Source: Chloroflexota bacterium (GTDB lineage Bacteria > Chloroflexota > Limnocylindria > QHBO01). From it: a stretch of 64,000 bases of DNA. The stretch spans positions 3,210 through 67,209 of the forward strand of contig JACDEL010000005.1 in the NCBI GenBank assembly GCA_013816405.1, in the 5' to 3' direction. Both the position numbers and the translations under genes were made by a program. Positions 30,910 through 59,066 of the stretch are shown here, in pieces. Each line of letters starts with the position of its first letter. Position 1 is the first letter of the stretch. Under the pieces are notes generated by a model. It searched no databases. It saw nothing but the letters and a program-made list of their open reading frames with translations, and was not told the DNA's origin.

Positions 30910-31079
30910 CCCTTCCTCTCCGCGGGGGGCGCTTGTTCGAGCTAGCTCCCGACGCCAAACAACGTCAAGCCAACCCTCCGATTGAAGCGCCACATCGCAG
31001 TATCTATCGCGCTACTACACGTCTACTGTCGCAGTTGGTCGGAAAGTCCCATGGAGAATGCAGTCGGCCCTGGGTGACC

Positions 31080-38098: not shown

Positions 38099-39179
38099 GA
38101 CGCTGAGATGGACCCCAGAGTGGCTCGTCGCTCCGGGCGAGGTCCTCGTGGAAGCGCTAGAGGAGCGCGGCATGTCTCAGGCCGAACTCGGTCGACGCAT
38201 GGCTCGCCCGCTGAAGACCATTAGCGAGATCGCTACGGGTAAGGCTGCCATCACCCCCGAAACCGCCATCCAACTCGAGCGCACACTGGGGATCACGGCC
38301 GCAATGTGGCTTGGGCTCGAGGCGCGCTACCGTGAAGCTCAAGCAAGAGAACGCGAAGCGGTCGAGCTCGAGGAGCATGTCACCTGGCTCAAGAGGTTCC
38401 CGATGCGGGAGCTCCTCTCGCGTGGCATCGTTCGACGTGACTCATCTACTCCCCAACAGGCGGCTGAACTCCTCAGCTTCTTCGGTGTGAGCAATCCCTC
38501 GGGATGGGCTCAACACTGGGGTCAGATCGCAGCCAGCTATCGCATGAGCCGCCGAACCAGGGTGTCTCGATTTGCGGTTGCACTCTGGCTGCGTACCGCC
38601 GAAAGAGAAGCTGAGAGCCAGCCGATTCCCGCATTCGACCGGAATCGCCTGCGGGCCATCGCTCCGGCGCTCCGGTCCCTGTCGCGAGCGCTCGTACTCG
38701 GGTCCGCCGTCGATGAGGCCAAGGAAGTTCTGAAGTCAGCGGGCGCGGGACTTCTGCTGATTGAGGGGGTAACCGACGCGCCAGCAAGTGGCGCCGTTCG
38801 GTGGGTCAGAGGCAACCCATGGATCATCCTCACCCTCAGGCACAAGACCGACGATCAGTTGTGGTTCAGCCTGCTTCACGAAATCGGGCACCTGTTGGAA
38901 GGCATTCGTCGCCAGGAGGTCGCCGAGGAGCTACCTGTTGGAAAGCTCGCCGATCCAGCAGAGAAGGCTGCCGACGACTATGCCCGAGAGATTCTTCTGC
39001 CCGAGGCTGAACTCAAGGTTTGGCTGCGCAACCACTCAATCGACAGGCAGACGATTCGAGACCTCGCGGCAAGCCAAGGAGTCGCTCCCGGGATCGTTGT
39101 CGGCCGGCTCCAGCGCGACGGACTAATTGAGCCGGCCCGGTTCAACGATTTAAAGCGGAGTCTGGATCCCCGTGGTTAG
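38091..39179 (+). CDS. HigA-type HTH antitoxin fused to an ImmA/IrrE zinc metallopeptidase domain
   Basis: APGEVLVEALEERGMSQAELGRRMARPLKTISEIATGKAAITPETAIQLERTLGITAAMWLGLEARY is a HigA-like HTH. The C-terminal LWFSLLHEIGHLL (HExxH) plus AADDYAREILLP is ImmA/IrrE. ATG 38091 lies just before the toxin stop (38096-38098). Confidence 0.8.
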   Translation: MTETLRWTPEWLVAPGEVLVEALEERGMSQAELGRRMARPLKTISEIATGKAAITPETAIQLERTLGITAAMWLGLEARYREAQAREREAVELEEHVTWLKRFPMRELLSRGIVRRDSSTPQQAAELLSFFGVSNPSGWAQHWGQIAASYRMSRRTRVSRFAVALWLRTAEREAESQPIPAFDRNRLRAIAPALRSLSRALVLGSAVDEAKEVLKSAGAGLLLIEGVTDAPASGAVRWVRGNPWIILTLRHKTDDQLWFSLLHEIGHLLEGIRRQEVAEELPVGKLADPAEKAADDYAREILLPEAELKVWLRNHSIDRQTIRDLAASQGVAPGIVVGRLQRDGLIEPARFNDLKRSLDPRG

Positions 39180-39328: not shown

Positions 39329-42274
39329 TCATGACGACTCGTCGGGCGGGTGCTTCGTCTCGTCGGTCTCCGCGGGCATCGAGTGCTTTCCGCGTCGGGC
39401 GTCCATCTCTTCGAGTGTTGGGAAGAGGGGCATCGCCATCCGGTGGCGAACCGTGATTGGTCGGGGGCGCGGGACGTCTAGTTCCGCGAATCCAGGCTTT
39501 GATTCGACGTCCCGACCAGGTTCACGTGGTTCGCGGACGGCCTTCCGGATCCTTCGGGCTGCGGCTCCCCGGCGGCTCTCTCGGTCGGCCGGGGCCGACA
39601 TTGGATCCTGACTCTCTTTCATCCGCCCGATCCTCATGGCGTCCTGCTCATCGACCTTACCCTGTTCTCGGAAAACGGATGCGCTGAGCGACCTCTCACG
39701 GCTGAAAGGACGTCCGAAGAGTGTGGTGCCGCGCGCGTAAACGACGATCCGATACACGCCAACTGCGGTGGCCGTGAAGTCCGCACTGAAGCGCCCACCC
39801 TCGACCTCCATGAACTTCACGGTCGTTTCTGTTCCGTTCGGCCACTCCACCTCCGACCAGACCGTTGCGCGGCCCTCCACCGGCGTGTCGTACTCGGACA
39901 GCGTGGCGCTGAGCCAGACATCCGAGCCGGGCTGGTGAGTCTTCTGGATCGCCTCGGCGAGGAAGTGCAGGTTCGAATTGGCGTGGATCTCGAGGCTGTA
40001 GGGCAGGGCCTGGCTTCCGAGTTCAGCGACAAGCGCTCGATCAGCATCCTTGGCCCGCTCGTTGAGGCGCAGCACGACATGCCATTCGCCCGCATGGCTC
40101 CCCTCTGGCGATCCCCCGAGCGCGGGGAGGGACAACCTGTAGAACGAGATGTGCGGGCGCTCCACGAACCTGACTGCGGGCTCGATTGTGCCTGTCGACG
40201 GGTCGACGATGACGCCGGCCGGAGTTTCGAGCGAGAACTCGATGTACTCCGGCGCCGGCGAGAGGAGCAGCACATCGACGCCGGCGTCGGCTTCGGTCAG
40301 CCAGAAGGGGATCCGGTGCTCGGCCCCGAAGACAAGCTGCCCGACCGGGTCGACGACGATCTGGGCATTGGTGAAGCCTGCCTGGATCTGCAAGAAGTAC
40401 TTGGACAGCAAGAAACGCTCGCTCTGCCCGATTGCTCCGGTGACCAGAAGGGACCCGCCGTTCTGGTGCGTCAGGCTGTCGAGCGCATCCTCGCTGACGT
40501 TGCCGGCCGTTCCAAATCCGATCGCGAACGTGTCTGCGCCAATCGAACCGGCGGAGTCGACGGTCGCAATCGACGGCGGCGTGTTCTCGTTGCCGTCGGT
40601 CAGCACGAGCATCCCCAGCGCTCCGTACGTGCCGGCCGGCGTAGCGTCGAGCGTGTCCCGACCCTCGGCGACACCGCCCCCGATCGATGTCGCGCCCCGA
40701 GGATCGAGTGTCTTGGCCGGATCGGAGGTGGCGAGGATATCGGCGACCCGGTCTCTTCCCGTGCCGGCGACCGGCGGAAGCGGCCCGACGTCGGTCACGT
40801 CGAGCAACCGGTTCACCTCATGATCGAACCGTACGATCCCGATCCCGTCACCTTCCTGCATGACCTCCAGGAACACTCCAACGGCCTCACGGAGCTTGTC
40901 CACCTTGGCCTGGCCGTCGCCGGAGTCGTCGGACATACTCCCGGACCGGTCGAGAACCAGAGCGACCGCGGACGGCTGGCGAGGCACGCTGTTGGCCGAT
41001 AGGTTCACACCCCAGGTCTCGGTCCAGACCGTCTCTCCGGCCGAATTGTGCGACGTGGCTCGGACGGTCAGGCTGCCAACGCTGATCGTCCCTGCGGCCG
41101 TCGAGTAGGAAATCCAGATCCGGCCCTTGGTAGGAGTCGGGTCATCACTGGTGGGAATGACGACAGACGTGCCGAGTGGGGTCCCCAGACCGGCCGATGG
41201 CCCGGCGATGATTTCCAGCGTGATTGCGTTGCACGGTCCGGGGACGACCTTCAGGACCACGGCCCGATAGGTCGTGACCGGCGTTCCGCCGATCCCCTCC
41301 TGGATATCCGTGAAGGCAACGCTGCTGGTCTTGGAGATGACCTCGGGCGGATCGTCGTCATACCAGTAGCCACCCGGTGTGATCGCGTGATGATTGATGA
41401 GCGATGCCGAGGTACGAGCTCCAGCCCACGGCGCGGTGGGGAACATCGCGTCGTTGAAGATCAGGTTGTCGCCGGCGTTGTGTCCCAATGGGGCGCCGGA
41501 TGGCGGTAGGTACGCGTCAGCCGTCGGATGCTGGCGCTGCCACACGGCCCACAGACGATCGATGTTGCAGTGATGGAGCCAGAACACGGGATCGTTCGGT
41601 GAACTGGCAAGATACATCGTTCGAGCGAGCCACCTGTGGACCAGGTTGTGAAGCTGGTACTCGACCTGGATGCGAAGGCTGTCGCCGCCACCGCCCGATG
41701 CCATGTCGTCCCACGGGGCCGCGTCATACGCCGTCTGAGCAAGAGCGGTGACCTGGTCGCCAGGGATGCTGTTCAAGTTCTGAGCGTCGGCCCGCTCGCC
41801 GAACCGACGGCCCAGGAACGATGGATTACCGGGCGAGTCCTTGATCCTGATCGTCCAATTGCCGGCATCGAAGGCAAAGGCCCCGTCCATAACCCGCCCG
41901 TCGCTGGCGCGGCCGTTCGTGCCGAGGCCTGACAAAGGGTCCGCATCGAAGATCGGCGCTCCGGTGCCCCGGTAGAGGTTCCAGTCCCAGTAGGGGATCG
42001 AGACGGTCGAGTCGATCGTCTGAAGATTCGCCTCGAAATGACGCATCAGGTCCCGATGCCATGAGAAGAAGGCAGGAGCCATGTGGGCCCACGAGGGCAT
42101 GACACTCATCGCCCGGAGATGGAGTGCGACGTAGTCGTCGTAGCGATGCATGTTGGAATCGCCGGGGAAGAGGACACTCGGCCATGCTGCGTCGTTCTTG
42201 AGCTTCAACAACGCGGCGATGAAGTTCTTCTTCTCCGCCGTCGTCAACCGCGCCCAGCTCTTGCGGCAGGTCAT
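39329..42274 (-). CDS. Tyrosinase (type-3 copper) - von Willebrand A - Ig-like multidomain protein
   Basis: CuA is MHRYDDYVALH...PAFFSWHRDLMRHFE...IPYWDW. CuB is QLHNLVHRWL...NDPVFWLHHCNIDRLWAVWQ. The vWA MIDAS is ALVLDRSGSMSDD ... TSIGGG ... MLVLTDGNEN. These are followed by ~300 aa of beta-rich sequence and a charged tail. There is no signal or Tat leader. Confidence 0.85.
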   Translation of the reverse strand: MTCRKSWARLTTAEKKNFIAALLKLKNDAAWPSVLFPGDSNMHRYDDYVALHLRAMSVMPSWAHMAPAFFSWHRDLMRHFEANLQTIDSTVSIPYWDWNLYRGTGAPIFDADPLSGLGTNGRASDGRVMDGAFAFDAGNWTIRIKDSPGNPSFLGRRFGERADAQNLNSIPGDQVTALAQTAYDAAPWDDMASGGGGDSLRIQVEYQLHNLVHRWLARTMYLASSPNDPVFWLHHCNIDRLWAVWQRQHPTADAYLPPSGAPLGHNAGDNLIFNDAMFPTAPWAGARTSASLINHHAITPGGYWYDDDPPEVISKTSSVAFTDIQEGIGGTPVTTYRAVVLKVVPGPCNAITLEIIAGPSAGLGTPLGTSVVIPTSDDPTPTKGRIWISYSTAAGTISVGSLTVRATSHNSAGETVWTETWGVNLSANSVPRQPSAVALVLDRSGSMSDDSGDGQAKVDKLREAVGVFLEVMQEGDGIGIVRFDHEVNRLLDVTDVGPLPPVAGTGRDRVADILATSDPAKTLDPRGATSIGGGVAEGRDTLDATPAGTYGALGMLVLTDGNENTPPSIATVDSAGSIGADTFAIGFGTAGNVSEDALDSLTHQNGGSLLVTGAIGQSERFLLSKYFLQIQAGFTNAQIVVDPVGQLVFGAEHRIPFWLTEADAGVDVLLLSPAPEYIEFSLETPAGVIVDPSTGTIEPAVRFVERPHISFYRLSLPALGGSPEGSHAGEWHVVLRLNERAKDADRALVAELGSQALPYSLEIHANSNLHFLAEAIQKTHQPGSDVWLSATLSEYDTPVEGRATVWSEVEWPNGTETTVKFMEVEGGRFSADFTATAVGVYRIVVYARGTTLFGRPFSRERSLSASVFREQGKVDEQDAMRIGRMKESQDPMSAPADRESRRGAAARRIRKAVREPREPGRDVESKPGFAELDVPRPRPITVRHRMAMPLFPTLEEMDARRGKHSMPAETDETKHPPDESS

Positions 42275-42480
42275 CGTGCGCCCTGTATCGCGGAGGGATC
42301 AGTGAGGCCACGATACCCCAGCCATCGAGTATTATCAATACTCTGCGGGGCCAGCGCGACACTCGATTTGCGAGGCTCCTCACTCGCTGCCCAACCAGGA
42401 AGAGTGCAGACCCTGCGGCCAGTTCGACGGGACTCTCGGGCGCAGAGCCCGGGGGTGCCTTGCAACAAAGGAGAGTAAGT

Positions 42481-42768
42481 GTGGCGGATTCGATTGAGGT
42501 GCGGTGTATCAACAAGACCGACCGCACGGATCCGCATGAGCGGATTAGCCACATCGGCGGGACCAACCCGAACGGAGCCGCCTGGAGGCTCACGGAGGCA
42601 GATGCGATTGCCGGCATCGAAAGTGACAAGTGGGCCTTCTCTGTAGATCGGCCAAAGGGCGACCGTGTTGCGGTGATTGTCGCCAGCCGGCTCGGGCGCA
42701 AGTACCTCAAGACCACAGCCGACGGGGATCAGCCCAACAACCTGCTCTTTCTGCCCGAATGCCCCTAG
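42481..42768 (+). CDS. DUF3892-domain small protein
   Basis: GTG 42481 has AAGGAG at 42468-42473. IEVRCINKTDRTDPHERISHIGGTNPNGAAWRLTEADAIAGIESDKWAFSV...YLKTTADGDQPNNLLFLPEC fits DUF3892. Confidence 0.65.
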   Translation: MADSIEVRCINKTDRTDPHERISHIGGTNPNGAAWRLTEADAIAGIESDKWAFSVDRPKGDRVAVIVASRLGRKYLKTTADGDQPNNLLFLPECP

Positions 42769-43622: not shown

Positions 43623-44942
43623 CTATCCGCGAGACTTAAGCGCCATTGCCTCCCGATACAGCACAACCGCCTCGGCAGGCTTCCCGAGCCTGTCGAGCAG
43701 CTCGGCCCATTCTGAGAGCAATGGCCGCAGGCGCCCTGCAAACCTGAGATCGCGGTACCCCTGAGCGGCAAGGCGAAACTCATCTAGGGCGTGGTCTGGA
43801 CGTCCCTCGGCCGCAAGCACCCGCGCCCGAGTGTAGTGAATGGCCGCCGATGCCTCCGGGTTTCGCCCGCCGTCGGCATCGGCGGCTGCCTCAGCCAACT
43901 TCTGAAGAGCTGCTTCGTGGTTCCCTTCGGCGAGTGCGATCTGGGCCTCAGTGTCGAGTACGTGCGGCAGAAACGTCGCTTCGGGCATGACATCGGCATG
44001 CTCGCGGGCTTGGGCGGCGAATGCATGTGCTCGTTCCAGGTGACCTAAGTGAAGCATCGCGAGGGAGAGGGTGTTCTCCATTGACGCGATCTCCTGCCTC
44101 GCGTGAAGGACCTGGAATAGCACGAGCGCCTGGCTCCCAGCCTGTAGTGAGGCCTCGTCGTCACCTACGTCCCCATAGCTTCGCGATAGATTCATCAACA
44201 GGGTAGCTCGCCGCCCGTCGTCCAAGTCGGAGACACGGCCACGCGCCTCTTCGAGATAGGCCAGGGCGCGCTGGGGCTCTCCTTCCCAATTCTCGACATT
44301 GGCCAAGGCGACGAGCAGGCGGAAGCGGAAGTCGGGCAAGACCTCCATGCCCTCACGGACGCGCTCGAGCAGCGTCTTCAGGATGGTTCGCGCTTCGCCT
44401 GAGTTGTCGGCCAGATAGTGGGCGTAGGCCAGCCAGTACCCGGCGTACGCGGCGTCCGCGGCTCGTTGCAGCCGCTCGAATCGTGCAGCCGACTCTGCCG
44501 CAGGGGCCACCGCCTCGGCGCCCCGCCGTAGCCGACAGAGGCTCTCGGCTATCCCACGCAGAATCTCGGCCCGAGCTCGGTCAGGTACCGCCGAATCGAG
44601 CAGGCTTTGATATTCACCAAGCGCTCCGGCGTAATCGCCTGAGGCCAGGCGCAAGTCTGCCCCCAGCCGATCCGCTCTGCCGGGCTCGGCGGGGAGAAAC
44701 GCCCCGATCGGAACACCGAGGCGCTCCCCGAAGTAGTGCAGCGCGGCCATGGACGGCTTGGTCAGTGCGTTTTCCAGCGCGCTGACGTATGCCGGGGTGT
44801 AGCGCGGTTGCGCCAACTCCCGCTGAGTGAGCTTGGCCGCCGTTCGCAGCCGCCTCACGTTCTCCCCGATGGCCTTCGCCAAGGGGCGGTTGTCGACAAC
44901 GTTCAAGACCCGCGGCTTGCGACGGGTTGCTGTTGGTTCCAT
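43623..44942 (-). CDS. XRE-family HTH + TPR-repeat transcriptional regulator
   Basis: The N-terminal HTH is LAKAIGENVRRLRTAAKLTQRELAQPRYTPAYVSALENA. About 330 aa of Ala/Leu-rich TPR-like repeats follow. Confidence 0.8.
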   Translation of the reverse strand: MEPTATRRKPRVLNVVDNRPLAKAIGENVRRLRTAAKLTQRELAQPRYTPAYVSALENALTKPSMAALHYFGERLGVPIGAFLPAEPGRADRLGADLRLASGDYAGALGEYQSLLDSAVPDRARAEILRGIAESLCRLRRGAEAVAPAAESAARFERLQRAADAAYAGYWLAYAHYLADNSGEARTILKTLLERVREGMEVLPDFRFRLLVALANVENWEGEPQRALAYLEEARGRVSDLDDGRRATLLMNLSRSYGDVGDDEASLQAGSQALVLFQVLHARQEIASMENTLSLAMLHLGHLERAHAFAAQAREHADVMPEATFLPHVLDTEAQIALAEGNHEAALQKLAEAAADADGGRNPEASAAIHYTRARVLAAEGRPDHALDEFRLAAQGYRDLRFAGRLRPLLSEWAELLDRLGKPAEAVVLYREAMALKSRG

Positions 44943-45111: not shown

Positions 45112-45400
45112 TTGGCTACCTGGGTCCGGAAGGTCCGTCCCCTCATCTTCGCGTTGTCCATTGCGGTCCTCACGGCGCTCGCCACGACGGCCAGCGTCCT
45201 GGCGAACAGCGACAAGGGCAGTTGGCCATAGGCCGACTGCACAGCCCCTGAACACGGCAACCAACTAGCAGCGGCGCGCGGTCCGGCCCTCACCGAAGCG
45301 CGGCTGCTTGGATCCGTACGATTTTGCTGCTAGGGTCGCACGCGCCGGCTACGCGACCGACCCGTCATACACGAAGGTGTTACACGGGGTCATGCGAGCG
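45112..45400 (+). pseudogene. Remnants of a secreted N-acetylglucosaminidase/muramidase-type gene
   Basis: TTG 45112 (with GGAAGGAG 7 nt upstream) opens a 39-codon ORF that is only a signal peptide (MATWVRKVRPLIFALSIAVLTALATTASVLANSDKGSWP*). In another frame, 45311-45400 reads DPYDFAARVARAGYATDPSYTKVLHGVMRA, the typical C-terminal end of glucosaminidase domains (aGYATDP.Y). Confidence 0.4.
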
Positions 45401-45721
45401 AGCGTTGGAGGCGGCGGGCTTCAAGTAGGAAGTGGGGTGGAAGCCGCTGTTGCCGAACCTGCGGTTGGATGCTCGAACCTTGGACCTTATGCGGCCCACT
45501 CTACCCGGTTCCCGACCTTGACCCGCCATTGATCCCAAACGCATCGACCGCGGATTCTGACCTCGACGGTCAGGTGTGTCCTCGGCCGACGTTGTTGCGG
45601 ATAGAGCCAAGCCGGATCGTGCGCCCTCAGCAACTACCGTCAGTCCCCCTTCTCCAGGAAGCCCTATCCAATTGATCGGCCGGCCGCTCACCCATGCTGC
45701 TCAAGCGCACGCGAGGCCGCA

Positions 45722-47242
45722 TTACGGTTCTGAAGATCGCTTTCGAGCCCTCGTCGGTATGGGCGGGACACTGACCTCTTGAAATGCCTTTCCGGCGCGC
45801 AGGTCGGCGTGCAGCTCGACATACGGCACGCGATCTGCGAGTAGGTTCGTTGAGCGCAGTGTCATGCTCGTGTCGAGGGCGGCAACCAGGGTCTCCCTCG
45901 GCACAGCCGTTGCCGGCGACTTGCCGTGAACACCAGGCTTCGTCGAGAGGAGAGCCCACCTCGGGTCCGACTTCGACCGCGGCTTCCAGAGATTAAACAA
46001 CGTGCGTGGGGTGGCGTTGCGACTTCCGTGGTGGCCGACCTTGTACACGTCCACCTCACGTAGCAGCGCTCGGTTTCGCGTTCGCTTGAGGGCGTATTCC
46101 CAGTTCTCGATCTGGGCATCGCCGCCGAACAGCAGCCGGATCCTCTTGCCACTCGCATCCACGTCGAAGAGGAGGATGACGCTCGTGTTGTTGAGCACCC
46201 CATCCAGGATCCGAACGATTCGATAGAGCGAGTTGAGCTGCTGCCGGCCCATGCGGTCTGTCAGCCAGCGCACAGGCCCAACTGGACCGAAGGCTCCGGC
46301 TGAATCAGGGGCATCGGTTTCCGCCGGATCCGGCGCCACCCCGGAGACATCATCGTGTGCACCTGCATGCGCCGCCGACTCGGTGGACGCGGGCAAACCC
46401 CGTTTGCCATGCGCAGGCCCGATGAGATCCGTGCGGGTAAGGTTGCCCAGCAGTTGGTTGTAGATCATCCAGAACTCGTCCGGATCGCTTTCTCGCTGGC
46501 TCTTGACCGCTTCGTGTTGGTCCACGGTCGGCGGCCCAAGAACTCGAGTGCGGATGCCCGGGACGACGGATTCGATCCCCGACCGCATCCCGTAATGCAA
46601 ATAGGCGGGCTTGCCCGCGTCGCCCCAGGCCTTGAGCTGGTTGACGGCGTCCTCGTTCTTGAGTTGGTCCTCGGCGAGGCCCGAGGCCTCGGCTGCGAGT
46701 GAATTGGGTGGCGACTTCCTGATCTTTTCGAAAAGCCCTGTGGTGAAGGTCTCAGCCGATCCGAGTGTCCTCATGAACCTTCGGGACTTGGGTCCGATGG
46801 CAACCTCCGTATCCCGAGCGTTTCCCCTGGTGGCCGATGGCGCAATGCCTGTTCCTGCTGCCGCGGGACCGCGCGCGCCTCGATCGAGGTCAGGATCCTC
46901 GGTCCACGATCGGATGACGAGCTTTGGGTATCCCGGGTCGACCAGCAGCTTGGCGATCTGCTTGTCGCCAAATGCTGAGAGATGGTCGCGGTGGCGATGG
47001 GTCACAACGATGACGTCGATCTTGCCCTGCGCATGGTCGCGAATGAGTTTTGCGATCTGGTTGAGGGACGAGAGCCTGCCGCCCATGCTGGTGCTCCCGA
47101 AATCAATCAGGACGTGGCGCTCCTTACGGCCGTCGTCAAGGGCCTGCCCATACTCGAAGCTGAGAAGGAAGCAGTCCCCGAATCCCACCTGGTACATGCG
47201 TATGCGGAGTCCAATCGGTTTGGCGCTGGCCATCGCTACCAC
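45722..47242 (-). CDS. Metallo-beta-lactamase-fold hydrolase, ComEC/Rec2-like subtype
   Basis: IRMYQVGFGDCFLLSFEY...HVLIDFGS, VIVVTHRHRDHL (HxHxDH) and VYKVGHHGSRNA. There is a long low-complexity insertion. The start overlaps the upstream stop by 7 nt. Confidence 0.8.
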   Translation of the reverse strand: MVAMASAKPIGLRIRMYQVGFGDCFLLSFEYGQALDDGRKERHVLIDFGSTSMGGRLSSLNQIAKLIRDHAQGKIDVIVVTHRHRDHLSAFGDKQIAKLLVDPGYPKLVIRSWTEDPDLDRGARGPAAAGTGIAPSATRGNARDTEVAIGPKSRRFMRTLGSAETFTTGLFEKIRKSPPNSLAAEASGLAEDQLKNEDAVNQLKAWGDAGKPAYLHYGMRSGIESVVPGIRTRVLGPPTVDQHEAVKSQRESDPDEFWMIYNQLLGNLTRTDLIGPAHGKRGLPASTESAAHAGAHDDVSGVAPDPAETDAPDSAGAFGPVGPVRWLTDRMGRQQLNSLYRIVRILDGVLNNTSVILLFDVDASGKRIRLLFGGDAQIENWEYALKRTRNRALLREVDVYKVGHHGSRNATPRTLFNLWKPRSKSDPRWALLSTKPGVHGKSPATAVPRETLVAALDTSMTLRSTNLLADRVPYVELHADLRAGKAFQEVSVPPIPTRARKRSSEP

Positions 47243-48990
47243 TCCTCCGCAAGGTTGGGTGACTGGTGGTGGAATTCAGCAAAGCGTTGGCCGAGCGGCA
47301 CGCCGAGCGAAAAGCCAAGCCGCCCCTTCGTATCCCACAGCCCTCGGTCGACGAGGTACTGGAGCCGTCGCTGCTGCCGCGACCAGTCATCCAGCCGCTT
47401 GAACCGCTGGTATTTCACTGCGCCGAACTCATCGAAGATGATCGTCCCGCCGCCCCACAGCTTGAGCTTCGTCTTGTCGGGGATGATTTCGGTCGATGGG
47501 AGGGTGAACGGCGGATCTCCGGGCTTGGTTGGCTGAGCAAGCTTGTCGAGATCAGCCCGACTGAGGATCAGCTCTTGGACGTAATCCACGACGGTCTCCG
47601 AGACGACGAACCCTCGCGGGCCGGTCCGCACCGCAGGCCGAACGTTCTCGACGTGCAGGTAGTAGGCCGGGTCGATCCCCAGAAATCGCGCATGGTCCCA
47701 AATGAACCGGAAGGTCTCATCCGGATCGGACCGAAGTGAGGCGTAGCTGAAGTCTCGGTAGGTAGGCCACCCGGTGGGCGGTGCGACCCAGTCGGGGGCA
47801 CCCTGAACCTCGATCCCGAATGACCTGAAACCCTCTTTCAGCGCCTCCACGTAGCCGTACTCGTCGTCGGGGTTCACCTCGTGCTCGGAGGCCACGATCG
47901 CCGTCAGAAAATCGGCAAGCTCGAATTCCACGGGCGGGCAGTAGTCGATCGCCCGGATCACCATGTTCAGCAGATGTTTCGCGGCCGTGGCGCCCTCTTC
48001 TGACGCTCGCCCGCGATCGATCGTGCCGGCGCCGACAATCGGAATAAGGCGATTGGTCCACATGTGGAGATACGTCCGGATGACCGCCGCGACAAGGATC
48101 TCCCCGCGGCGGTGGGGCTCCGCCCATTCAGGATTGCGCAGGTCCTTCCAGGCGGTCGTGGGCTCCTGATCGATCGAGCGCCGCAGGCCGTCGCCGCGAT
48201 TGAGGTGCAGCGCATTGCCGAACTGCCTGCCGATGGTGAACAGGACCGACGAGCGAAGTCCGTCGAACGTCAGCCGGTCGGCGCGCACCCGAGCCTGACC
48301 GGGATCGCCGAGCACGGCCTGGATCGATTCCCGCGCCGACAGGATGGAGAGCAGCGCAACGAGGTCCGCGAATCCCTCGTGGAACCCGGCCTGGTCAGGG
48401 AGGCCAGGCGTGTCGAATCGGCGCCTCAGGCCGTCGAGGATGGCGTGCGTCGTCTCGTGGGCGACGATGTCGTGAGCCAGGCAGGTCATGATGCGACCGG
48501 ATGCCTGGCTGTTGAAATACCCGAATAGCAGGGCGCGATCATCGTCCGAGTAGTACGCATTGGCCTCGGCAAAGGCCCTCGGGACCAGGTATAGCTGCGA
48601 GCTTCCGAACGCCCACGGCACTGGGCGGCCCAGGGCCGTCTCAAAGAATCCGAGTGTCCTCGCCGCGATCGCGTACACGTTCTGGGCATGAAAGGCTGGA
48701 TCGCGAAGGAGCGTCCTGTCGTCGGCCTTCGCGAATCGGTCCCGATAGTCCCAGCCGGCCGAGTCGCCGCGCATCGGCGCCAGCCTGGCCGGGCGATCAA
48801 GCGTGCGACGGCTCGCGTCGAAGCCAACGACGTGGAAGCGCGGGCCACGTGGACCAGGCTCAAGGCGGCTGGCCGGTACCTGGATGACCGCCCGCAGGAT
48901 GGGCTGATCGCCATTCGTCGACGCCTGGTTAGTCACCAGCGGATCGCGCGCGATGATCGTCATTGGGAAGTAGCGCAGCCGTTCCTGCAT
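47236..48990 (-). CDS. Thermolysin-like (gluzincin, HExxH+E) zinc metallopeptidase with a large C-terminal domain
   Basis: ORF 47236..49347. ATG 48988-48990 (MQERLRYFPMTIIARDP) shares nt 48990 with the upstream TGA (TGATG). The active site is CLAHDIVAHETTHAILDG ... QAGFHEGFADLVAL. There is no signal peptide. Confidence 0.8.
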   Translation of the reverse strand: MQERLRYFPMTIIARDPLVTNQASTNGDQPILRAVIQVPASRLEPGPRGPRFHVVGFDASRRTLDRPARLAPMRGDSAGWDYRDRFAKADDRTLLRDPAFHAQNVYAIAARTLGFFETALGRPVPWAFGSSQLYLVPRAFAEANAYYSDDDRALLFGYFNSQASGRIMTCLAHDIVAHETTHAILDGLRRRFDTPGLPDQAGFHEGFADLVALLSILSARESIQAVLGDPGQARVRADRLTFDGLRSSVLFTIGRQFGNALHLNRGDGLRRSIDQEPTTAWKDLRNPEWAEPHRRGEILVAAVIRTYLHMWTNRLIPIVGAGTIDRGRASEEGATAAKHLLNMVIRAIDYCPPVEFELADFLTAIVASEHEVNPDDEYGYVEALKEGFRSFGIEVQGAPDWVAPPTGWPTYRDFSYASLRSDPDETFRFIWDHARFLGIDPAYYLHVENVRPAVRTGPRGFVVSETVVDYVQELILSRADLDKLAQPTKPGDPPFTLPSTEIIPDKTKLKLWGGGTIIFDEFGAVKYQRFKRLDDWSRQQRRLQYLVDRGLWDTKGRLGFSLGVPLGQRFAEFHHQSPNLAEEW

Positions 48991-50429
48991 CAAGTCACCT
49001 CGGGGCGTAGGGCACTGCGCGGATCTGGCAGTGGAGCAGCGAGCGTCGGCTTGAGCCAGGCGGAGGCGGCCAGTCCCATGGCCTCCCTGAGCCTGATGGT
49101 CACCGAGTCCCGCTGCTCGTCGCCCTGGAAATGGTAGTAAAGGGCGTGTGCGTAGGCCGGGATCCGGGCCTTCCAGCCGTTGGCCAGCAACGGCCGATCC
49201 AGGATTCCGTTGCCGAACAATGGGCCGAGCGGTCCACCGAACCAGTCGCCGAAGAAGCCGAAGTGGGCGGGGAACCACATGTTCGTCCAGCGCACCACCG
49301 CGAACGGTGCAGCGTGGTACAGCACGCGACGACCACGGTTGTTCCACGAGAACCAGAGCTTCTGTCCGTTCACGTTGTTTTTCTCCGACAACTCGTGCTG
49401 CGGTGGGCAGGTGGGTAGCTCCCGCAGCAACACTCGGTTGTCGAACTTCTTCCGATTCCGGGTATAGATCCGATCTGCCATGTACATCGGGCTACCGAAG
49501 CTGAGGAAGTCGGTGATCAGCCACGGATTGCCTTGTGCGCGCATTCCCAGCCATAGCCTCCGTTGGGTGTCCTGGTAGGCGGTCACATCCGATCCACGCG
49601 TCAAAGCCGATGCCGCCGCCTCAAGGTCCGCAAGGCCGCTGGGCTGGTCGCCCTGCTCCGGCTTGTCGACGTCCGGTCGGACAGGACCGGCATGCTGTTT
49701 GTCCATCTGGCCCCAGAGGTAGCTAATCGCGTCGTATGCGATGTACGAGCCAAGACTGTGGGCGATGATGACAATCCGCTGGTAGCGCCCGTCGGCATGT
49801 AGTCCCTGCAAGAGGTCGATGATTCCGGCCCGAATGTCGCGCCGCACCTCATATGAGCGCGGGGACGTGTCAAGGTAACGGATCACGTCGACGAAGCTCG
49901 AGGTCAGCCACGACGGCAGCCAGCGCGTCAGGACGTACGTGAGCAGAATCGCGCTCAGTCCACCTCCGACCACCGCTTTGAGGATGTCCACCAGGGTGAT
50001 CTGGCCCAAATCCAAGGCAAGGTCCGGTCGAAGCGACAGGAACAGAAGGACGCTCGCGATCAACAGCGCCCAGAAGATAGCCCACAGGACACGGAGGCCT
50101 GCGGGTACGTACCACGGGGGCGCAAGCAGCATCCGGCGGAAGGCGGGCCAGAGGTCGTCTAGCCGGTTGTCCTGCATGAGGTGGGCCCAGTGGTATTCAA
50201 AAAACTCAGTCTGTGCCCGAATCTCGCCCGCATCGTTGTGAGCAGCAGGGGCGAGGTACCGACGCGACTCATACGAATCCACAACCTGGTCTGGTCGCGA
50301 ATAGAAGAGGCGCTTGCCGCCTCGGTCGGCCCCGAGAGCGGCACCGATGAATTCGTTGAGGGTCTCCAGCGGGCGCTGCTCGCCCATGCCGTGGACGATA
50401 ACGACGGCTTGCCGGAGATGCCGTTCCAT
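48990..50429 (-). CDS. Alpha/beta-hydrolase (lipase/esterase-like) with two inserted TM helices
   Basis: AVVIVHGMGEQRP (oxyanion-hole region). The TM segments are VLWAIFWALLIASVLLFLSL and AVVGGGLSAILLTYVLTRWL. The nucleophile elbow is RIVIIAHSLGSYIAYD. Confidence 0.75.
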   Translation of the reverse strand: MERHLRQAVVIVHGMGEQRPLETLNEFIGAALGADRGGKRLFYSRPDQVVDSYESRRYLAPAAHNDAGEIRAQTEFFEYHWAHLMQDNRLDDLWPAFRRMLLAPPWYVPAGLRVLWAIFWALLIASVLLFLSLRPDLALDLGQITLVDILKAVVGGGLSAILLTYVLTRWLPSWLTSSFVDVIRYLDTSPRSYEVRRDIRAGIIDLLQGLHADGRYQRIVIIAHSLGSYIAYDAISYLWGQMDKQHAGPVRPDVDKPEQGDQPSGLADLEAAASALTRGSDVTAYQDTQRRLWLGMRAQGNPWLITDFLSFGSPMYMADRIYTRNRKKFDNRVLLRELPTCPPQHELSEKNNVNGQKLWFSWNNRGRRVLYHAAPFAVVRWTNMWFPAHFGFFGDWFGGPLGPLFGNGILDRPLLANGWKARIPAYAHALYYHFQGDEQRDSVTIRLREAMGLAASAWLKPTLAAPLPDPRSALRPEVT

Positions 50430-50518
50430 CCCTCGGGTTCCTCCCCGCTAGACGCGACTGATTGGCGCCGGGCTCGGCGCATTCTCTCACCCGAATCAAC
50501 CGCCCGGATGGGCGCTCG

Positions 50519-50725
50519 TCAGCGGAAAGACTCCGCCCGGTAGAGGTCGGCCGGCAAGTTGTGGTCGATCACGAAGCATTCGACAGCACAGCCGAATACC
50601 TCTCCGTCGTTGAATGAGGTCTCGACGCAATGCCGGAGGCAATCTCGGAGGTCGCCACCAACCTCCCAGGGGTTCGACCCACGTCGGCGCGTCTCCGCCT
50701 CTTGCTTTGGATCTTCTGGTGCCAT
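50519..50725 (-). CDS. Possible small twin-CX3C protein (68 aa)
   Basis: ATG 50725 within ORF 50519..50821: MAPEDPKQEAETRRRGSNPWEVGGDLRDCLRHCVETSFNDGEVFGCAVECFVIDHNLPADLY. It lies 90 bp upstream of the hydrolase operon on the same strand. A purine-rich stretch (GAGGGCAGGAAG) sits before the ATG. Confidence 0.35.
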   Translation of the reverse strand: MAPEDPKQEAETRRRGSNPWEVGGDLRDCLRHCVETSFNDGEVFGCAVECFVIDHNLPADLYRAESFR

Positions 50726-51043
50726 CTTCCTGCCCTCATCTACAGCGCAAAACCCATTGATCAGTTCGGCAGCTCCTCCTGAGCCGTGGCCAGCGGCACG
50801 ATCGCGGCGAGCGGTGCGCAACCCTTAGAACCATCCCGCTCGCTCCAGTGCCCTGGTTGGCGAAGAAGGTCAAGTATCATCAATCTTCGTAGCTGATGTC
50901 AAGAAGGTTGTGAGCCGCCCAAGGAGTCCGTGAGAATCGCATTCTCGCACCGACAGGGGCCACTTGCGCTGGCGACTATTATTTATCCCTTGGGGTCTGA
51001 GGCCCACCGCTGGCGGACCGAGACCGAAAGGGAGGGACCTCGC

Positions 51044-54947: not shown

Positions 54948-56497
54948 TCACTTCGAGACCGCCATGCTACGAAGCGACTCCCACCAGCGCGGATGCGGGG
55001 TCCGCAGCCCTCGCCTGACGAGCGCGCAGTAGCCGACCGACAGCCCGGTCACCGCCGCCAACTTGCGCACCGGCACCCCTTGGATCAGCGGCAGGATTTC
55101 ATGCCGAAAGCTGTCGGGATCTGACGGCTGCCTATGGGATCCATCCCAAGCCAGCGCCTCAACACGTCGTCGTCGCTGCACGATTCGCTGCTTCGCTCTA
55201 GCTTCGCGGCTCGCCGCGGGATCGCCGCCGATCGCCCGCAGGTCGGCACGAATCGCGCGAGCTGCAGCTAGGCCAGCGAAACTTGCCTTGAGTCTGACTT
55301 CAGTCCGGCAGCGATCGCACCATGAACGGCCCGCAGTAACCCCGACGCCGCAATTCCGACAGATCGGTTGTGCCACGCTCGGGTCCCGGCGCCCCACTGC
55401 ACGTTTGGTCGCGTTCGGAATGGGTCCCGCCCGGCCGAGCGGTTCGCCTGGGTGAGCATGGTCGGCAGCTGACCGACCCGGGAACCCGGGCCGTCGGCGA
55501 AAGCCTGAGCGACGCGTTCAACGATAGGTGCCAAGAGGCGCGCCCAATGCGGTGCCGTTTCTGCCAGACGGTGAGTCAGCGGAGGCAGGACGCGACATAC
55601 GCCCTGGCGAGTCTCGTAGAAGTCATCTGCGCGGAAGACCGACCTGCGCAGGAGCTCGAGAATGTAGGCGTCAACGTCGGGGCGTATCGCCTCCATCACG
55701 TTGAGCGTCAACGAATCGCGTGACTTCTGGTCGGCGTGCAGCACGCCGAGACCCGGGTCCAACCCGGCGGCAAGGCACGCCAAGCGAGCCTCGGCCTCGA
55801 GAATTGCATACAGATAGTTGAGCAGCGCGTGTGCGGGGGTCGCGGCGAGCCGCGCGTTGCCCGTCAGCGGCGATCGGCGGCGACCGACCGTCCGCCAGTG
55901 CTCGGGCGCATTCGAGGCATCGGCCCGGGTCCATGGCATCGGGACCGAGGCCCACGCGCTCCAGTAGCCGTTGGCGGCTGCCGCCTCAACGATCATCAGT
56001 CTTCAGGCGAGTTGGCTTACCTCGAGCTCCGGCAGCAGCCGCTCGATGGTTTCGACGACATCCGCACAATTAGACAGGTCGGTCGCCACGCGCGCCTGGC
56101 CAGAGAGCTTGCGGGTCAACAGATCGCGAGCGATCGAAAGCCCATGCCCTGTGCCCCAGGCCAGACTCTGGGCTCGTCGCAGGCGCGGGTCGTTCAGACC
56201 GAAGTTTCCTGAGGTGGCCAGGATCCGCCCATCGGGATCAAGGTGGATAAAGGGGACCCCGACGTCTGCCAGCCAACGCATTGCGTCGAGCGTCACGAAG
56301 CCGGTGTGCCCGAGCAGAACGAGTCGGCGGATGCCGTTCGTAGCACGACTGAATCGACTCTCTCAACGGAGCGGGCCGACGCCGTCGCAGACAACCAAGC
56401 GCCCGCGTTCGAGATGCACTCGAATCCCGTAGCCGTCCACTACGCAGACGCCGGACTTGCTGACGGTGATGGGGGTCGTTGTAGGCTGGGTTTGCAT
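54948..56497 (-). pseudogene. cas1: Cas1-like ('Cas1-solo' type) gene with two in-frame TGA codons, one frameshift, and a C-terminal Zn-ribbon/HTH extension
   Basis: ATG 56497 (GGAAGGAG at 56508-56515). One frame reads MQTQPTTTPITVSKSGVCVVDGYGIRVHLERGRLVVCDGVGPLR*ESRF...GIRRLVLLGHTGFVTLDAMRWLADVGVPFIHLDPDGRILATS...LPELEVSQLA*RLMIVEAAAANGYWSAW...AATPAHALLNYLYAILEAEARLACLAAGLDPGLGVLHADQKSRDSLTLNVMEAIRPDVD... The TGAs are at 56363-56365 and 56003-56005. A frameshift near 55420 leads into ...QPICRNCGVGVTAGRSWCDRC...VRKLAAVTGLSVGYCALVRRG (ORF 54948..55397). Confidence 0.7.
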
Positions 56498-57116
56498 GGG
56501 AAGCTAACTCCTTCCTGTGCCACTCCCCCGAGCCGTTACCAGCGGCCGCGGGGGCTAATCTCGCTAGTTCGCCGGGCTCGATCCGATGACGTCGAGAACC
56601 GCGACCATCAGCACCCGCTCTTCGAGCGGGATGCCTCCCAGATCGACGTTTGCGTCCTTGGCATAGAGCGGCAGGATGTCGCGCGCCCAGGCATACCAGC
56701 CGCTGGTGCGAGCCACGACGGTTTCCTCGCCAGCAGTTTGCAGTAGGGCCGCTGTCTAATCACCCTAGCTCGGGCGGCGCCCTGGTTCGTGCAGGGCGGC
56801 CAAAGGGTCCCCTCCGTATTACATCTGCCCACCTAGAAGCGCAGCGATCGTCCGAGCACAAGGCCACAAGATGTAGTGGTGCACCTTCGAGGCGCTGACA
56901 CCGAGGTTGTCGAACACTCGTAATTGTACAGAGGACGGCGGGATTCAAGTCAGGTCTGACCCACTCCATCTTCGCCCGCATGCGGCGAGCCTAGCACCGC
57001 CTAGCGGCCTTCCGACAAGGCTGCTGCGGCGGATGGAGGCAGTGGTACGCTCGCGGCACAAGGGTTGGGATGGCCGGTCCGCGGAGTGATTGGGGGAAGA
57101 CGGAGGGAGCCAACTC

Positions 57117-59066
57117 GTGCGACTGGTTTCGTTGCGTCTCACGGGTTACCGCAGGTTCCTCGATGCACGCGTCTCGCTCGATGCGCCTGTCGTCGCAATC
57201 GTCGGGCCGAACCAGGCAGGCAAAAGCAGCCTCCTCAGTGCTCTTCGGGCCCTGGAGACCGATGATCCGATTTCCGAACGCGATCTCACTCGCAGCGCTC
57301 CGCCTGCGCCCGGCTCAGTGGTTATCGAGGCGCGATACCGACTGGACGCGGAAGCAATACAGGCTTTGGCGGACCACGGCATCAGCAAGCCGCCTCTCTT
57401 CCTCATCGAGCGGAAGAAGCACGAGGGTTCACTCGAGTACACAACTGAGCCGCCGTTAGTCAGGGATCGGGCCCTTCGTCTTCGGACGGTGCCCCGCTTA
57501 CGGAAGGCCTCGCAAAGCCTTTGGGCCAAAGGTCTCGCGGCTATCGAAACGGCGCCTCGTCCTGAGACGCCTGAAGGCGTCTCGACCTCAACGCCGGCTG
57601 AAGCACGGATTTCTGAACTAGCCGTGGCGCTCGATTCAAAGGCGGAGAGCCTACCTACTTCGACGCTCGATCTAATCGATCAGGTCCGGGACCATCTGGC
57701 AGGCGGCGGAGGGAACTCCAAGCGCGAAGAGTTGAGGAACAGTCTTGCGGCGTTGTCACTGACTGAGCGCGAGCTGCACCCCAGTCGTGTCGCGACCAAG
57801 CTTCTCCAAGACCACGTCCCAAGTTATCTGGATTTCGGTAGCGGCGCCCGCATGCTCGAGCCTGAATACGATTTCGCGACTCTCGATCTAACTGAGCCTC
57901 CAGACGCACTCGTCAACCTCTGCTCGGTTGCCGGGCTGGACCTTGGTGCCCTGCAGGGAATTCTGTCTACCACAGACCCAGCCGAGACCGTGAATCTGCT
58001 AGACCCGGCCAATGCGACTCTCGCGTCGGTATTCGGTCAATTCTGGACGCGCGCCAAGTTCTCCTTGCGGCTTGAGCGGGATGGGAGTCGCCTCCACATC
58101 CTCACCGACCGGAAGCCGGGGAAATGGGCGTCAATAGCCGAATCCAGCGACGGAATGCGCGCCTTCGTTGCACTGATGGTATTTGCACATCAAAACCCAT
58201 CAACTCCCCGACCAGTGCTGCTTGTCGACGAGGCGGAGACGCACCTCCACTACGAAGCTCAGGCCGACCTTGTACGCGTTTTTGAGTCGCAGGACGCGGC
58301 AGGGCAGGTGATCTATACGACGCATTCGGCGGGGTGCCTTCCCCAGGACTTGGGACGCGGAGTGAGGGTCGTGGGTCGGATTCCAGAGACGGACACAAGC
58401 GAGATTCGGTCATCGTTTTGGACACTTGGGCCCGGCTTCTCGCCGCTCGTCATTGCGATGGGAGCGAGCGCACTTGCCTTCACACCCACACGATTCGAGG
58501 TAATCGGAGAAGGAGGGTCGGAGACGTTGCTGCTGCCGACCCTTCTTCGCGAGGCGACAGGTCTAGAGAGGCTCGCCTTTCAGGTAGCTCCGGGTCTAGC
58601 GAATGCTTCGTTCGCCCAACTGAAGGAGTTGGGTCTGGAGGCTGCTCGGGTCGCCTATCTTGTCGACAGCGATCAGAGTGGGCGGGACAAGCGGGCTGCC
58701 TATCTCGCTGAGGGCATTCCCCCGAAGTTGGTCGTCTTCCTCGGGGCGTCTAGCACGAGCAACTTCGCTATTGAGGACTTCCTCGACGAAGAGGTGTACC
58801 TCGCCGCTGTGAACCTGGAGAGCGCCGGGCGCCACGACCCTGCATATGAGATCCCCTCAGGCCAACTCCCGCGACGGGGGCGTGCCAAATGGGTAAAGGC
58901 GCGGCATGCTGCGAAAAGACTCCCAACCCTGAGTAAGACTGAGGTGGCTGCCAGGGCTCTTGACATCGCAGTCGGGAGGCTGCTGTCGGACCCAACTCGT
59001 CACAAGACGCTTCGGGCGGTCCATGGGAAGCTGCTTGCTGCGTTGGGGGTTGATGAGACAACGTAG
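57117..59066 (+). CDS. OLD-family nuclease: ABC-type ATPase fused to a Toprim domain (single-gene; could alternatively be a fused PARIS-like AriA-AriB)
   Basis: GTG 57117 has GGAGGGAG at 57102-57109. Motifs are LVSLRLTGYRRF, Walker A IVGPNQAGKSSLL, signature SSDGMRAF, Walker B VLLVDEAETHLH, and Toprim FEVIGEGGSETLLL ... VAYLVDSDQSGRDK. Confidence 0.85.
   Translation: MRLVSLRLTGYRRFLDARVSLDAPVVAIVGPNQAGKSSLLSALRALETDDPISERDLTRSAPPAPGSVVIEARYRLDAEAIQALADHGISKPPLFLIERKKHEGSLEYTTEPPLVRDRALRLRTVPRLRKASQSLWAKGLAAIETAPRPETPEGVSTSTPAEARISELAVALDSKAESLPTSTLDLIDQVRDHLAGGGGNSKREELRNSLAALSLTERELHPSRVATKLLQDHVPSYLDFGSGARMLEPEYDFATLDLTEPPDALVNLCSVAGLDLGALQGILSTTDPAETVNLLDPANATLASVFGQFWTRAKFSLRLERDGSRLHILTDRKPGKWASIAESSDGMRAFVALMVFAHQNPSTPRPVLLVDEAETHLHYEAQADLVRVFESQDAAGQVIYTTHSAGCLPQDLGRGVRVVGRIPETDTSEIRSSFWTLGPGFSPLVIAMGASALAFTPTRFEVIGEGGSETLLLPTLLREATGLERLAFQVAPGLANASFAQLKELGLEAARVAYLVDSDQSGRDKRAAYLAEGIPPKLVVFLGASSTSNFAIEDFLDEEVYLAAVNLESAGRHDPAYEIPSGQLPRRGRAKWVKARHAAKRLPTLSKTEVAARALDIAVGRLLSDPTRHKTLRAVHGKLLAALGVDETT

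Follow-up and report, generated by a model that had tools for sequence, protein, structure and literature searches.

A thermolysin-fold metallopeptidase encoded with an MBL-fold protein: a candidate protease-gated effector module in a Chloroflexota defence island

In a 64,000-nucleotide stretch of DNA from a Chloroflexota bacterium (GenBank assembly GCA_013816405.1, contig JACDEL010000005.1, positions 3,210 to 67,209 of the forward strand; referred to here, at its full length, as the window), three minus-strand genes follow one another closely and encode a lipase-like, membrane-anchored alpha/beta-hydrolase, a zinc metallopeptidase with a thermolysin fold and a ComEC-type hydrolase with a metallo-beta-lactamase (MBL) fold. 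What could these three proteins do together, and does the locus represent a defence system that has not yet been named? The answer that is favoured here, with moderate confidence, is that the locus is a protease-gated suicide-effector module of the abortive-infection type, in which the peptidase and the MBL protein constitute the core and the lipase is an exchangeable component.

Conservation of the peptidase–MBL pair

The peptidase was searched for in one genome per GTDB species, which yielded 40 loci (including those of Chloroflexota, Actinomycetota, Planctomycetota, Armatimonadota, Gemmatimonadota, Acidobacteriota, Pseudomonadota, Nitrospira and others) whose neighbouring genes were identified by tblastn. 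An MBL gene was found directly downstream of the peptidase gene in 39 of these 40 species-representative loci and was also observed to follow it in 39 of the 44 metagenome loci with room downstream; since the adjacency recurs in both sets, the arrangement is not a matter of chance. The genes for the hydrolase, for a small open reading frame (ORF) located 5' of it in the window and for an XRE-TPR protein encoded beyond the MBL gene (Table 1) were detected by tblastn in none of the 40 loci. The evolutionarily conserved unit is therefore the peptidase–MBL pair and not the trio.

The pair shows a patchy distribution across more than ten phyla, and 33 of the 55 plasmid records that contain the peptidase, including those of Rhizobium and Agrobacterium, are conjugative. 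The peptidase family comprises 2689 proteins (90% clustering, E ≤ 1e-5) among 8000 candidates scored, or 2981 clusters at 50% identity with E ≤ 1e-3, of which 618 reach E ≤ 1e-30, and its members are almost all annotated as "hypothetical protein". A phage origin of the peptidase was considered and rejected, as no relative was detected in the viral contigs of IMG/VR.

The two partners also occur in fused or elaborated forms. P0287 (1271 amino acids, aa) is a peptidase–MBL fusion, the C-terminal half of which matches the window MBL protein (BLASTP, 2e-70), while P0296 carries an N-terminal domain resembling zinc phospholipase C (a sub-threshold match, 5.7e-5) fused to the peptidase. Tandem peptidase domains, the first copy being degenerate (HETTQ, HQLTH) and the second active, were identified in P0302 and P0326, and the peptidase of locus L061 possesses N-terminal TPR-S sensor repeats (2.1e-12). 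On plasmid pCMU01 of Methylorubrum extorquens CM4 (L211, 5702–8800), a protein annotated as "S8 family serine peptidase" (WP_162091632.1, 1032 aa) consists of an intact subtilase and an intact metallopeptidase domain (HETTH ... HEAFAD); an MBL gene follows it, and DUF2235 and SIR2 genes flank it. A KAP NTPase gene (L138) or a WD40 gene (L007) lies directly downstream in two other loci. As a side observation, a small astacin-like metallopeptidase is encoded directly 5' of the peptidase in three loci (L017, 6979–7830; L030, 7015–7884; L041, 2132–2905), which places two different zinc peptidases in tandem.

In the window, the stop codon (TGA) of the hydrolase gene and the start codon (ATG) of the peptidase gene have nucleotide 48990 in common (junction ...GTG ACT TGATG CAG), and this one-base overlap is also kept in two related loci, L042 and L137. 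The peptidase/MBL junction reads GCGGAGGAGTGGTAGCGATGGCC, and public gene calls for the MBL protein start from the ATG at 47233, which lies 2 nucleotides past the TAG of the peptidase gene and is preceded, 8–10 nucleotides 5', by the Shine–Dalgarno sequence GGAGGAG. The original prediction had reported overlapping stop and start codons at both junctions; the TGATG at 48990 is confirmed, but the 7-nucleotide overlap at 47236–47242 holds only with a GTG start at 47242. Under either start the peptidase and MBL genes are tightly coupled. The proposed co-expression of all three genes, as one transcript, is supported. A scan for promoters and terminators gave nothing beyond the shuffled expectation (one promoter-like site against a shuffled mean of 1.0), and the single promoter-like site is a weak lead only.

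The MBL protein as a putative pro-nuclease and the peptidase as its putative switch

A precedent for the association of a protease with an MBL protein was provided by Tuck et al. (Science 2025; PMC12799240), who described the ComEC-like MBL proteins of Hachiman (HamM), AVAST (Avs1a), Lamassu and DRT loci as gated pro-nucleases with two disordered insertions that are predicted to block the active site. Cutting of the insertions by a trypsin-like partner protease converts the enzyme into an indiscriminate DNase, a caspase playing this role in the new Canu (CanABC) system, and HamM, Avs1a and CanC were all reported to be activated through proteolytic removal of the two insertions.

The MBL protein encoded in the window has the attributes of such a module, namely intact metal-binding motifs, homology to defence MBL proteins and a co-encoded protease with which it co-occurs. 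Its motifs occupy invariant or near-invariant columns of the family alignment: D20 (GDC), H79xH81xD83H84 (HRHRDH, aa 79–84), D372 (GDAQ) and H401/H402 (GHHGS, aa 400–404). Matches were obtained with the PADLOC models LmuA(MBL) (1.8e-16), RTasMBL (6e-8), Avs1a (6.7e-8) and PDC-M48B (3.5e-7), as well as with the NCBIfam models 6A-MBL (2e-11), Avs1a (6.4e-10) and ComEC/Rec2 (1.8e-4). The window protein aligns with the short MBL proteins encoded in Canu-like caspase loci across all catalytic motifs, and hhalign of the two families gave a probability of 98% (E 2.8e-13). In one such locus (L045), a 351-aa MBL protein that matches the LmuA-MBL and Avs1a models with E-values of 1.3e-64 and 6.7e-44, respectively, is encoded together with a CarboxypepD_reg-like protein and a member of Peptidase_C14 (Pfam 2.1e-9; PADLOC caspase 1.7e-12).

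Two insertions of the window MBL protein are candidate gating and cleavage loops (Table 1). In the AlphaFold2 model of the protein (mean predicted local distance difference test, pLDDT, 84; predicted template-modelling score, pTM, 0.86) the pLDDT falls below 50 at aa 127–141, 279–301 and 307–312. Over 72 MBL homologues, the first insertion varies in length from 12 to 41 aa between conserved flanks (WTEDP and S..F...L) and the second from 23 to 84 aa between EFWMxY and GPVRWLT; both are hypervariable, rich in Ala, Gly and Pro, and longer than the matching segments of the short MBL proteins of caspase loci. As modelled, the insertions have the anatomy that would be expected for gating loops.

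The peptidase carries six residues that are invariant in the family alignment (H178, E179, H182, E205, D209 and H293). Its AlphaFold2 model (pLDDT 87, pTM 0.91; the last 10 residues disordered, with pLDDT below 50) was matched by Foldseek to gentlyase (7.7e-6), thermolysin (2.3e-5), PlM4P (4.2e-5) and the M36 peptidase fungalysin (1.3e-4) in the PDB, in all cases with a probability of 1.0 and with target-normalised TM-scores of 0.5–0.58. At the level of profiles the kinship is faint: Pfam Peptidase_M4 (PF01447) scores 18.3 bits, under its 22.4 cut-off, PF02868 gives no match, the family profile retrieves only aureolysin (E 0.63) from PDB sequences, and no PADLOC or NCBIfam model matches the peptidase or the hydrolase at E ≤ 0.1. 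The likeness to the thermolysin (M4) and fungalysin (M36) families lies in the fold and in the HExxH and ExxxD motifs of gluzincins, and the conserved H293 may correspond to the transition-state histidine. The peptidase differs from both families in that it lacks a signal peptide and an FTP/PepSY pro-peptide, is cytoplasmic and operonic with an MBL gene, and carries about 150 additional aa that form a further domain at the C-terminal end, as well as a conserved EEW tail. This tail (...RFAxxH...(E/D)EW) stands at or within about four residues of the C-terminus in approximately 70 of 96 loci from many phyla, as counted by eye from the listed tails of L002–L192, and might serve for docking or act as a plug that keeps the peptidase inhibited.

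Several elements of the original prediction are upheld by these comparisons, namely the assignment of the three proteins to thermolysin-like peptidases, ComEC-type MBL proteins and alpha/beta-hydrolases, the completeness of all three catalytic signatures, whose motifs fall on invariant or near-invariant family columns (each protein looks competent as an enzyme), and the cytoplasmic location of the peptidase and the MBL protein. The N-termini of both proteins have no signal-like hydrophobic stretch, and no pro-peptide is visible in the peptidase, which, as read from its sequence, looks active and cytoplasmic. It had also been proposed that the operon combines three different degradative chemistries. 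To read them as acting in parallel is probably the wrong logic: because the relatives of the MBL protein are pro-nucleases activated by a partner protease, the peptidase is more likely to be a switch than a third weapon.

According to the mechanism proposed here, the peptidase would be held inactive in uninfected cells, either by its extra C-terminal domain or by the conserved acidic-aromatic tail, until an infection cue switches it on. The active peptidase would then cut both insertions of the MBL pro-enzyme and relieve the presumed occlusion of its active site, and the resulting indiscriminate DNase would kill the cell or arrest it and so put an end to the replication of the phage. Most likely, the hydrolase encoded upstream would be a further effector, aimed at the membrane and subject to the same control, a part that may be taken in other lineages by a patatin, a Tle1/DUF2235 or a phospholipase C (PLC)-like phospholipase.

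How does the locus compare with systems that have already been named? It shares with Canu the operonic protease gene 5' of a gene for a ComEC-like MBL protein with two disordered insertions and the location in defence islands, and the hydrolase family of the window is also found beside Canu-like loci (L045, L048, L049, L057 and L059). However, CanA is a caspase with an Ig-like domain, whereas the window protease has a thermolysin fold and gives no C14 or CHAT match; the window locus, characterised here from its sequence, contains no CanB-like gene, and its MBL protein exceeds the Canu one by about 150 aa, carries far larger insertions and reads HxHxDH in place of HxDxDH. HamMAB, Avs1a with its protease-STAND partner and the MBL-containing variants of Lamassu and DRT UG9 likewise combine a gated MBL pro-nuclease with a protease, and their MBL models are the best PADLOC matches of the window MBL protein. 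There, a trypsin-like protease forms one protein with a known sensor or effector (HamA, Avs or LmuA), and the MBL gene lies upstream; in contrast, the metallopeptidase of the window stands alone, the MBL gene follows it, and core genes of Hachiman, STAND or Lamassu are absent.

The view that the trio corresponds to no named system can be retained in part: nothing in PADLOC 2.0 or NCBIfam 2026 scores above threshold, but the nuclease–protease theme to which it belongs is a known relative, and this kind of module was itself published in 2025. The partner proteases given in the supplement of that survey (PMC12799240) are restricted to subtilase, caspase/CHAT and trypsin. The word "metalloprotease" does not occur in its main text, and the supplement contains no occurrence of "metalloprotease", "metallopeptidase", "thermolysin", "zincin" or "peptidase". 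No paper joining a metalloprotease with an MBL pro-nuclease was found in the literature, and the conflict-system papers of the Aravind group do not mention MBL proteins, thermolysin or patatin in this context. What is new here, and present in no catalogue searched, is the metalloprotease partner, the stand-alone form and the recurrent lipase partners. The "subtilase-associated" nuclease clade of the published survey may in part consist of S8 fusions to the metallopeptidase domain described above.

Lipid hydrolases beside the pair and competing explanations

The expectation that the trio would recur elsewhere as a cassette was borne out, but only in a fraction of the loci that contain the pair. 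At least five further contigs contain all three genes together; their peptidase is 92% (L042), 81% (L212, where the contig is cut), 80% (L206), 60% (L137) and 46% (L213) identical to that of the window; in L137 the hydrolase is 57% identical and in L213 the MBL protein 41% identical. A trio with a peptidase of a distant clade was found in L061, L068, L069, L070 and L131.

The hydrolase is invariant at H13, G14, M15, G16, E17, S225 and H428, and the HSLGS motif (H224-S225-L226-G227) is invariant as well. The two transmembrane (TM) helices that had been predicted between the oxyanion motif and the nucleophile, read here from the sequence and the alignment, correspond to hydrophobic stretches that are kept across the family. 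Pfam DUF900 scores 16.9 bits on the protein, under the 20.5 cut-off; a search of the PDB with the family profile returned a single match, to the diacylglycerol lipase 5xk2 around GHSLG (E 0.023), and the homologues among the matches listed, 120 in number, are all annotated as "hypothetical".

A survey of 220 relatives of the hydrolase in species-representative genomes, of which the best 80 were combined with the first 17 loci to give approximately 82 unique loci (neighbours called with a GC3-weighted gene caller), showed an MBL gene of this family within 9 kb in 14 of them. Five of the 14 are the Canu-like loci named above, with caspase and CanB-like genes; one (L060) encodes a CHAT-nSTAND1 protein, six (L061, L063, L068, L069, L070 and L131) a peptidase of the window family belonging to the distant clade, and two (L103 and L128) have no assigned partner. 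In L063 the hydrolase gene is convergent with the peptidase and MBL genes and is therefore not part of their operon. In L214 (7001–9456), a hydrolase gene (59% identical) is followed by one encoding an EEP (Exo_endo_phos) protein, with a transposase adjoining and no peptidase–MBL pair; this may be another pairing of the hydrolase with a nuclease.

Other lipid hydrolases occupy a similar place. A patatin or Tle1/DUF2235 gene, assigned by similarity, adjoins the pair in 14 of the 40 species-representative loci, and a patatin or Tle1-like gene does so in 16 metagenome contigs, mostly short ones. Patatins confirmed by Pfam lie up- or downstream of the pair in L007, L028 and L031, where the window-type hydrolase is absent; the patatin of L138, supported by a weak precomputed Pfam match, overlaps the peptidase gene by 4 nucleotides. 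L016 contains a Tle1-like/DUF2235 phospholipase and L011 an S15/S33-type alpha/beta-hydrolase (both confirmed by Pfam), while on the Agrobacterium vitis plasmid pAvCG78b (WP_087730425.1, WP_071585044.1 and WP_071585045.1) successive genes of the peptidase–MBL–DUF2235 series share 4 nucleotides each. Kribbella sp. CA-253562 shows the order patatin–peptidase–MBL–WD40, and Novosphingobium sp. BL-8A is a further cultured carrier. As four or five unrelated lipid-hydrolase families adjoin or are fused to the pair, the lipase appears to be a real, optional and exchangeable component. Defence operons in which a lipid hydrolase accompanies an enzyme that signals or activates call to mind the CBASS patatin CapV and the Tle1/DUF2235 lipases. 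The window hydrolase differs from these in that its own alpha/beta-hydrolase family is a separate one that lacks annotation and contains two TM helices as an insertion. No precedent for lipase activation driven by a protease, as opposed to a nucleotide signal, was found described in the literature.

Several observations weigh against reading the locus as a protease-gated module with an exchangeable lipase. The scores of the MBL protein are far under the curated equivalog cut-offs (Avs1a, 38.3 against 420 bits; 6A-MBL, 43.6 against 220; ComEC_Rec2, 19.8 against 190), and for this reason it is considered a distant relative of the named nucleases that belongs to none of those families; its putative nuclease activity is deduced from this distant kinship. 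Pfam Lactamase_B, with 18.4 bits at the locus, is likewise below its cut-off of 22.7. When the MBL model was compared with PDB entries by Foldseek, only weak matches were obtained (RNase J, the best, at 1.5e-3, the type VII CRISPR Cas14 nuclease, CPSF and generic MBL/beta-CASP proteins), so that the predicted structure supports the MBL superfamily and not any nuclease subfamily. A sequence search against solved structures returned nothing useful (E ≥ 0.18), and no close relative has a solved structure. Unlike HamM, which has a conserved Ile, and CanC, which has a conserved Gly, the insertions of the 72 window-type homologues lack any conserved residue by which a cleavage site could be recognised. 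Neither the two- nor the three-gene form has an evident sensor of its own, and the surroundings are mostly metabolic at L139 (except for a PIN-Phd pair) and ordinary metabolic ones in the syntenic Acidobacteriota loci. Finally, the hydrolase is absent from all 40 species-representative peptidase loci, and about 68 of the approximately 82 hydrolase loci have no MBL gene within 9 kb. The hydrolase genes that stand alone include the copies of Streptomyces, Mycobacterium, Nocardioides and Microbacterium, some of which, those of Microbacterium among them, reside in conserved synteny.

Because of this absence from most peptidase–MBL loci and the scarcity of MBL genes near its relatives, membership of the hydrolase in the module is less secure than that of the pair. 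It is conceivable, though we regard it as unlikely, that the pair is the whole system and the hydrolase an independent gene, for a stand-alone membrane lipase effector or a housekeeping lipase, that shares islands with the pair and became coupled to it by happenstance in this lineage; its syntenic Microbacterium copies, the convergent gene in L063 and the pairing with an EEP protein in L214 would be in keeping with this. However, a neighbour acquired by accident would not be expected to adjoin a rare MBL family in 14 of approximately 82 loci, which is far above chance, nor to do so alongside at least three different partner proteases. The stop/start overlap kept in L042, L137 and the window, and the non-homologous lipases (patatin, DUF2235 and PLC-like) encoded up- or downstream of the pair or fused to it, also speak for a functional connection. 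An extension of the protease-gated reading, more speculative still and put forward only tentatively, is that a single metalloprotease switches on two zymogen effectors, the MBL DNase and the membrane lipase, with the EEW tail serving as an autoinhibitory plug that the infection signal releases and the S8 fusions forming two-step protease cascades; this would amount to a proteolytic death cascade of bacteria that employs a thermolysin fold.

The polarity of the switch could also be inverted, as in toxin–antitoxin (TA) systems: the nuclease, and perhaps the lipase, would be constitutively active and destroyed by the peptidase via the loops until infection blocks the peptidase or host expression. 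Disordered hypervariable loops could equally be degradation handles, the minimal form has no sensor domain, and the peptidase-first order with its tight coupling would suit the stoichiometry of an antitoxin and a toxin. Nevertheless, cleavage activates the nuclease in all three tested relatives (HamM, Avs1a and CanC; PMC12799240), and the peptidase–MBL fusion as well as the peptidases fused to TPR-S or S8 domains suit an activating protease better, which renders the inverse logic improbable.

Still less probable is a cluster of exported or injected toxins (protease, nuclease and phospholipase) delivered by a type VI secretion system, an extracellular contractile injection system (eCIS) or a similar device. 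Exotoxins are classically drawn from families such as Tle1-like proteins, patatins, PLC and M4 proteases, and an eCIS_core protein in L045, a phage-sheath gene by L018 and an RHS protein near L043 were noted. However, signal peptides, fusions to PAAR, VgrG or Rhs and adjacent immunity-like genes are absent for all three proteins, and the hydrolase is integral to the membrane of the cell that makes it. The MBL protein has its closest profile matches among intracellular defence nucleases, and the great majority of neighbouring genes belong to defence or to mobile elements. A housekeeping function, for example a ComEC-like nuclease taking up or turning over DNA, together with membrane lipid remodelling and proteolysis, to which the weak ComEC similarity and some metabolic neighbourhoods might point, is very improbable given the patchy occurrence over more than ten phyla, the conjugative plasmids and defence islands, the hypervariable loops and the lack of the ComEC membrane channel domain in the MBL protein.

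If the protease-gated reading is correct, thermolysin-fold zinc peptidases would represent a fourth, mechanistically unrelated protease class employed in the activation of pro-nucleases, and the gated MBL nuclease would be a general plug-in effector for any protease. It would also provide a definition for a large "hypothetical" family of about 3000 clusters at 50% identity in more than ten phyla. Moreover, lipid-degrading effectors may prove to be under proteolytic control as well, which would amount to a two-armed suicide response directed at both DNA and membrane.

Genomic surroundings of the operon

The location of the trio in a defence island, as claimed in the original prediction, is corroborated by the GajA-like OLD protein, type I restriction–modification (R-M) genes, PDC-S39, PD-Lambda-2 B and C proteins and AriA/AbiL-like ATPase encoded in the window (Table 1). 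The neighbours of related loci include genes for OLD-TOPRIM, SbcCD-like, patatin, Bil-like E1, RHS, SIR2, TA and integrase proteins, as well as an Eco57I-type R-M system with HigBA and, in another locus, LmuB_C. The Cas1 fragment is probably a remnant.

Table 1. Positions of the operon, of its predicted functional elements and of neighbouring features in the window (nucleotide positions count from the first letter of the window)
Feature	Position	Strand	Remarks
Alpha/beta-hydrolase gene, lipase-like, membrane-anchored	48990-50429	-	479 aa
Hydrolase HGMGE oxyanion motif, aa 13-17	50379-50393	-	
Hydrolase, two TM helices, aa ~112-170	49920-50096	-	stretches aa ~112-133 and 147-170
Hydrolase nucleophile Ser225 in AHSLGS	49755-49757	-	
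Peptidase gene, thermolysin-fold zinc metallopeptidase	47236-48990	-	584 aa counted from ATG
Peptidase HETTH, aa 178-182	48445-48459	-	HExxH motif
Peptidase Glu205 in HEGFAD	48376-48378	-	third zinc ligand
Peptidase extra C-terminal alpha/beta domain	aa ~440-550		no confident structural match
Peptidase conserved tail ...RFAxFH...EEW, aa 569-584	47239-47286	-	disordered
MBL gene, ComEC-type MBL-fold hydrolase	45722-47233	-	503 aa counted from ATG
MBL insertion 1, aa 113-147	46793-46897	-	candidate gating and cleavage loop, disordered
MBL insertion 2, aa 272-319	46277-46420	-	candidate second gating and cleavage loop, disordered
Promoter-like site TTGACA-18-GATACT	50873-50902	-	5' of small ORF and hydrolase; 10/12 matches
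Small ORF, CLRHC...CAVEC	50519-50725	-	68 aa
XRE-family HTH and TPR protein	43623-44942	-	439 aa; 780 bp downstream of MBL gene; HTH_31 1.3e-6, TPR_12 1.5e-11
GajA-like OLD/TOPRIM ATPase-nuclease	10359-12110	-	
DUF4062	16725-17822		
Type I restriction enzyme	22088-25219	-	followed, up to 28967, by genes presumed to encode HsdS/HsdM
PDC-S39/DUF4209	29086-30993	-	
PD-Lambda-2 C	36526-37713	-	2.3e-29; Pfam label Beta_protein
PD-Lambda-2 B	38082-39179	+	2.5e-32; A component not identified
Solo Cas1 fragment	55268-55996	-	242 aa; matches positions 152-267 of 283-position Cas1 profile
AriA/AbiL-like ATPase	57090-59066	+	

Two neighbours of the operon were considered as further components and set aside. 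The small twin-CX3C ORF, which had been suggested to be a fourth, leading gene, has no counterpart 5' of the hydrolase in any of 92 other loci; L137 has a small ORF at this place, but an unrelated one. The XRE-TPR neighbour was identified correctly by the original prediction, and a copy that is 45% identical adjoins the trio of L137; as it was found only there and in the window, and in none of the 40 species-representative loci, it was rejected as a core component and may be a lineage-specific regulator or sensor.

Between the MBL and XRE-TPR genes, a short ORF at 45308–45532 (+) reads ...YATDPSYTKVLHGVM..., which we take to resemble the terminal part of a glucosaminidase/FlgJ-type domain and which probably represents a gene remnant, in line with the original suspicion. 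A small DUF3892 gene accompanies the trio in three contigs (window, 42460–42768, +; L137, 13630–13911; L213, 14817–15095), the window and L137 copies being 66% identical. An IS481-like transposase, judged from its N-terminal sequence only, seems to be encoded at 31835–32791. A protein of 981 aa with tyrosinase and VWA domains is encoded at 39329–42274 (-), 1.3 kb beyond the XRE-TPR gene, and a hemocyanin/tyrosinase-domain protein is encoded directly 5' of the peptidase in L033 (5526–7628), these being the only two cases observed.

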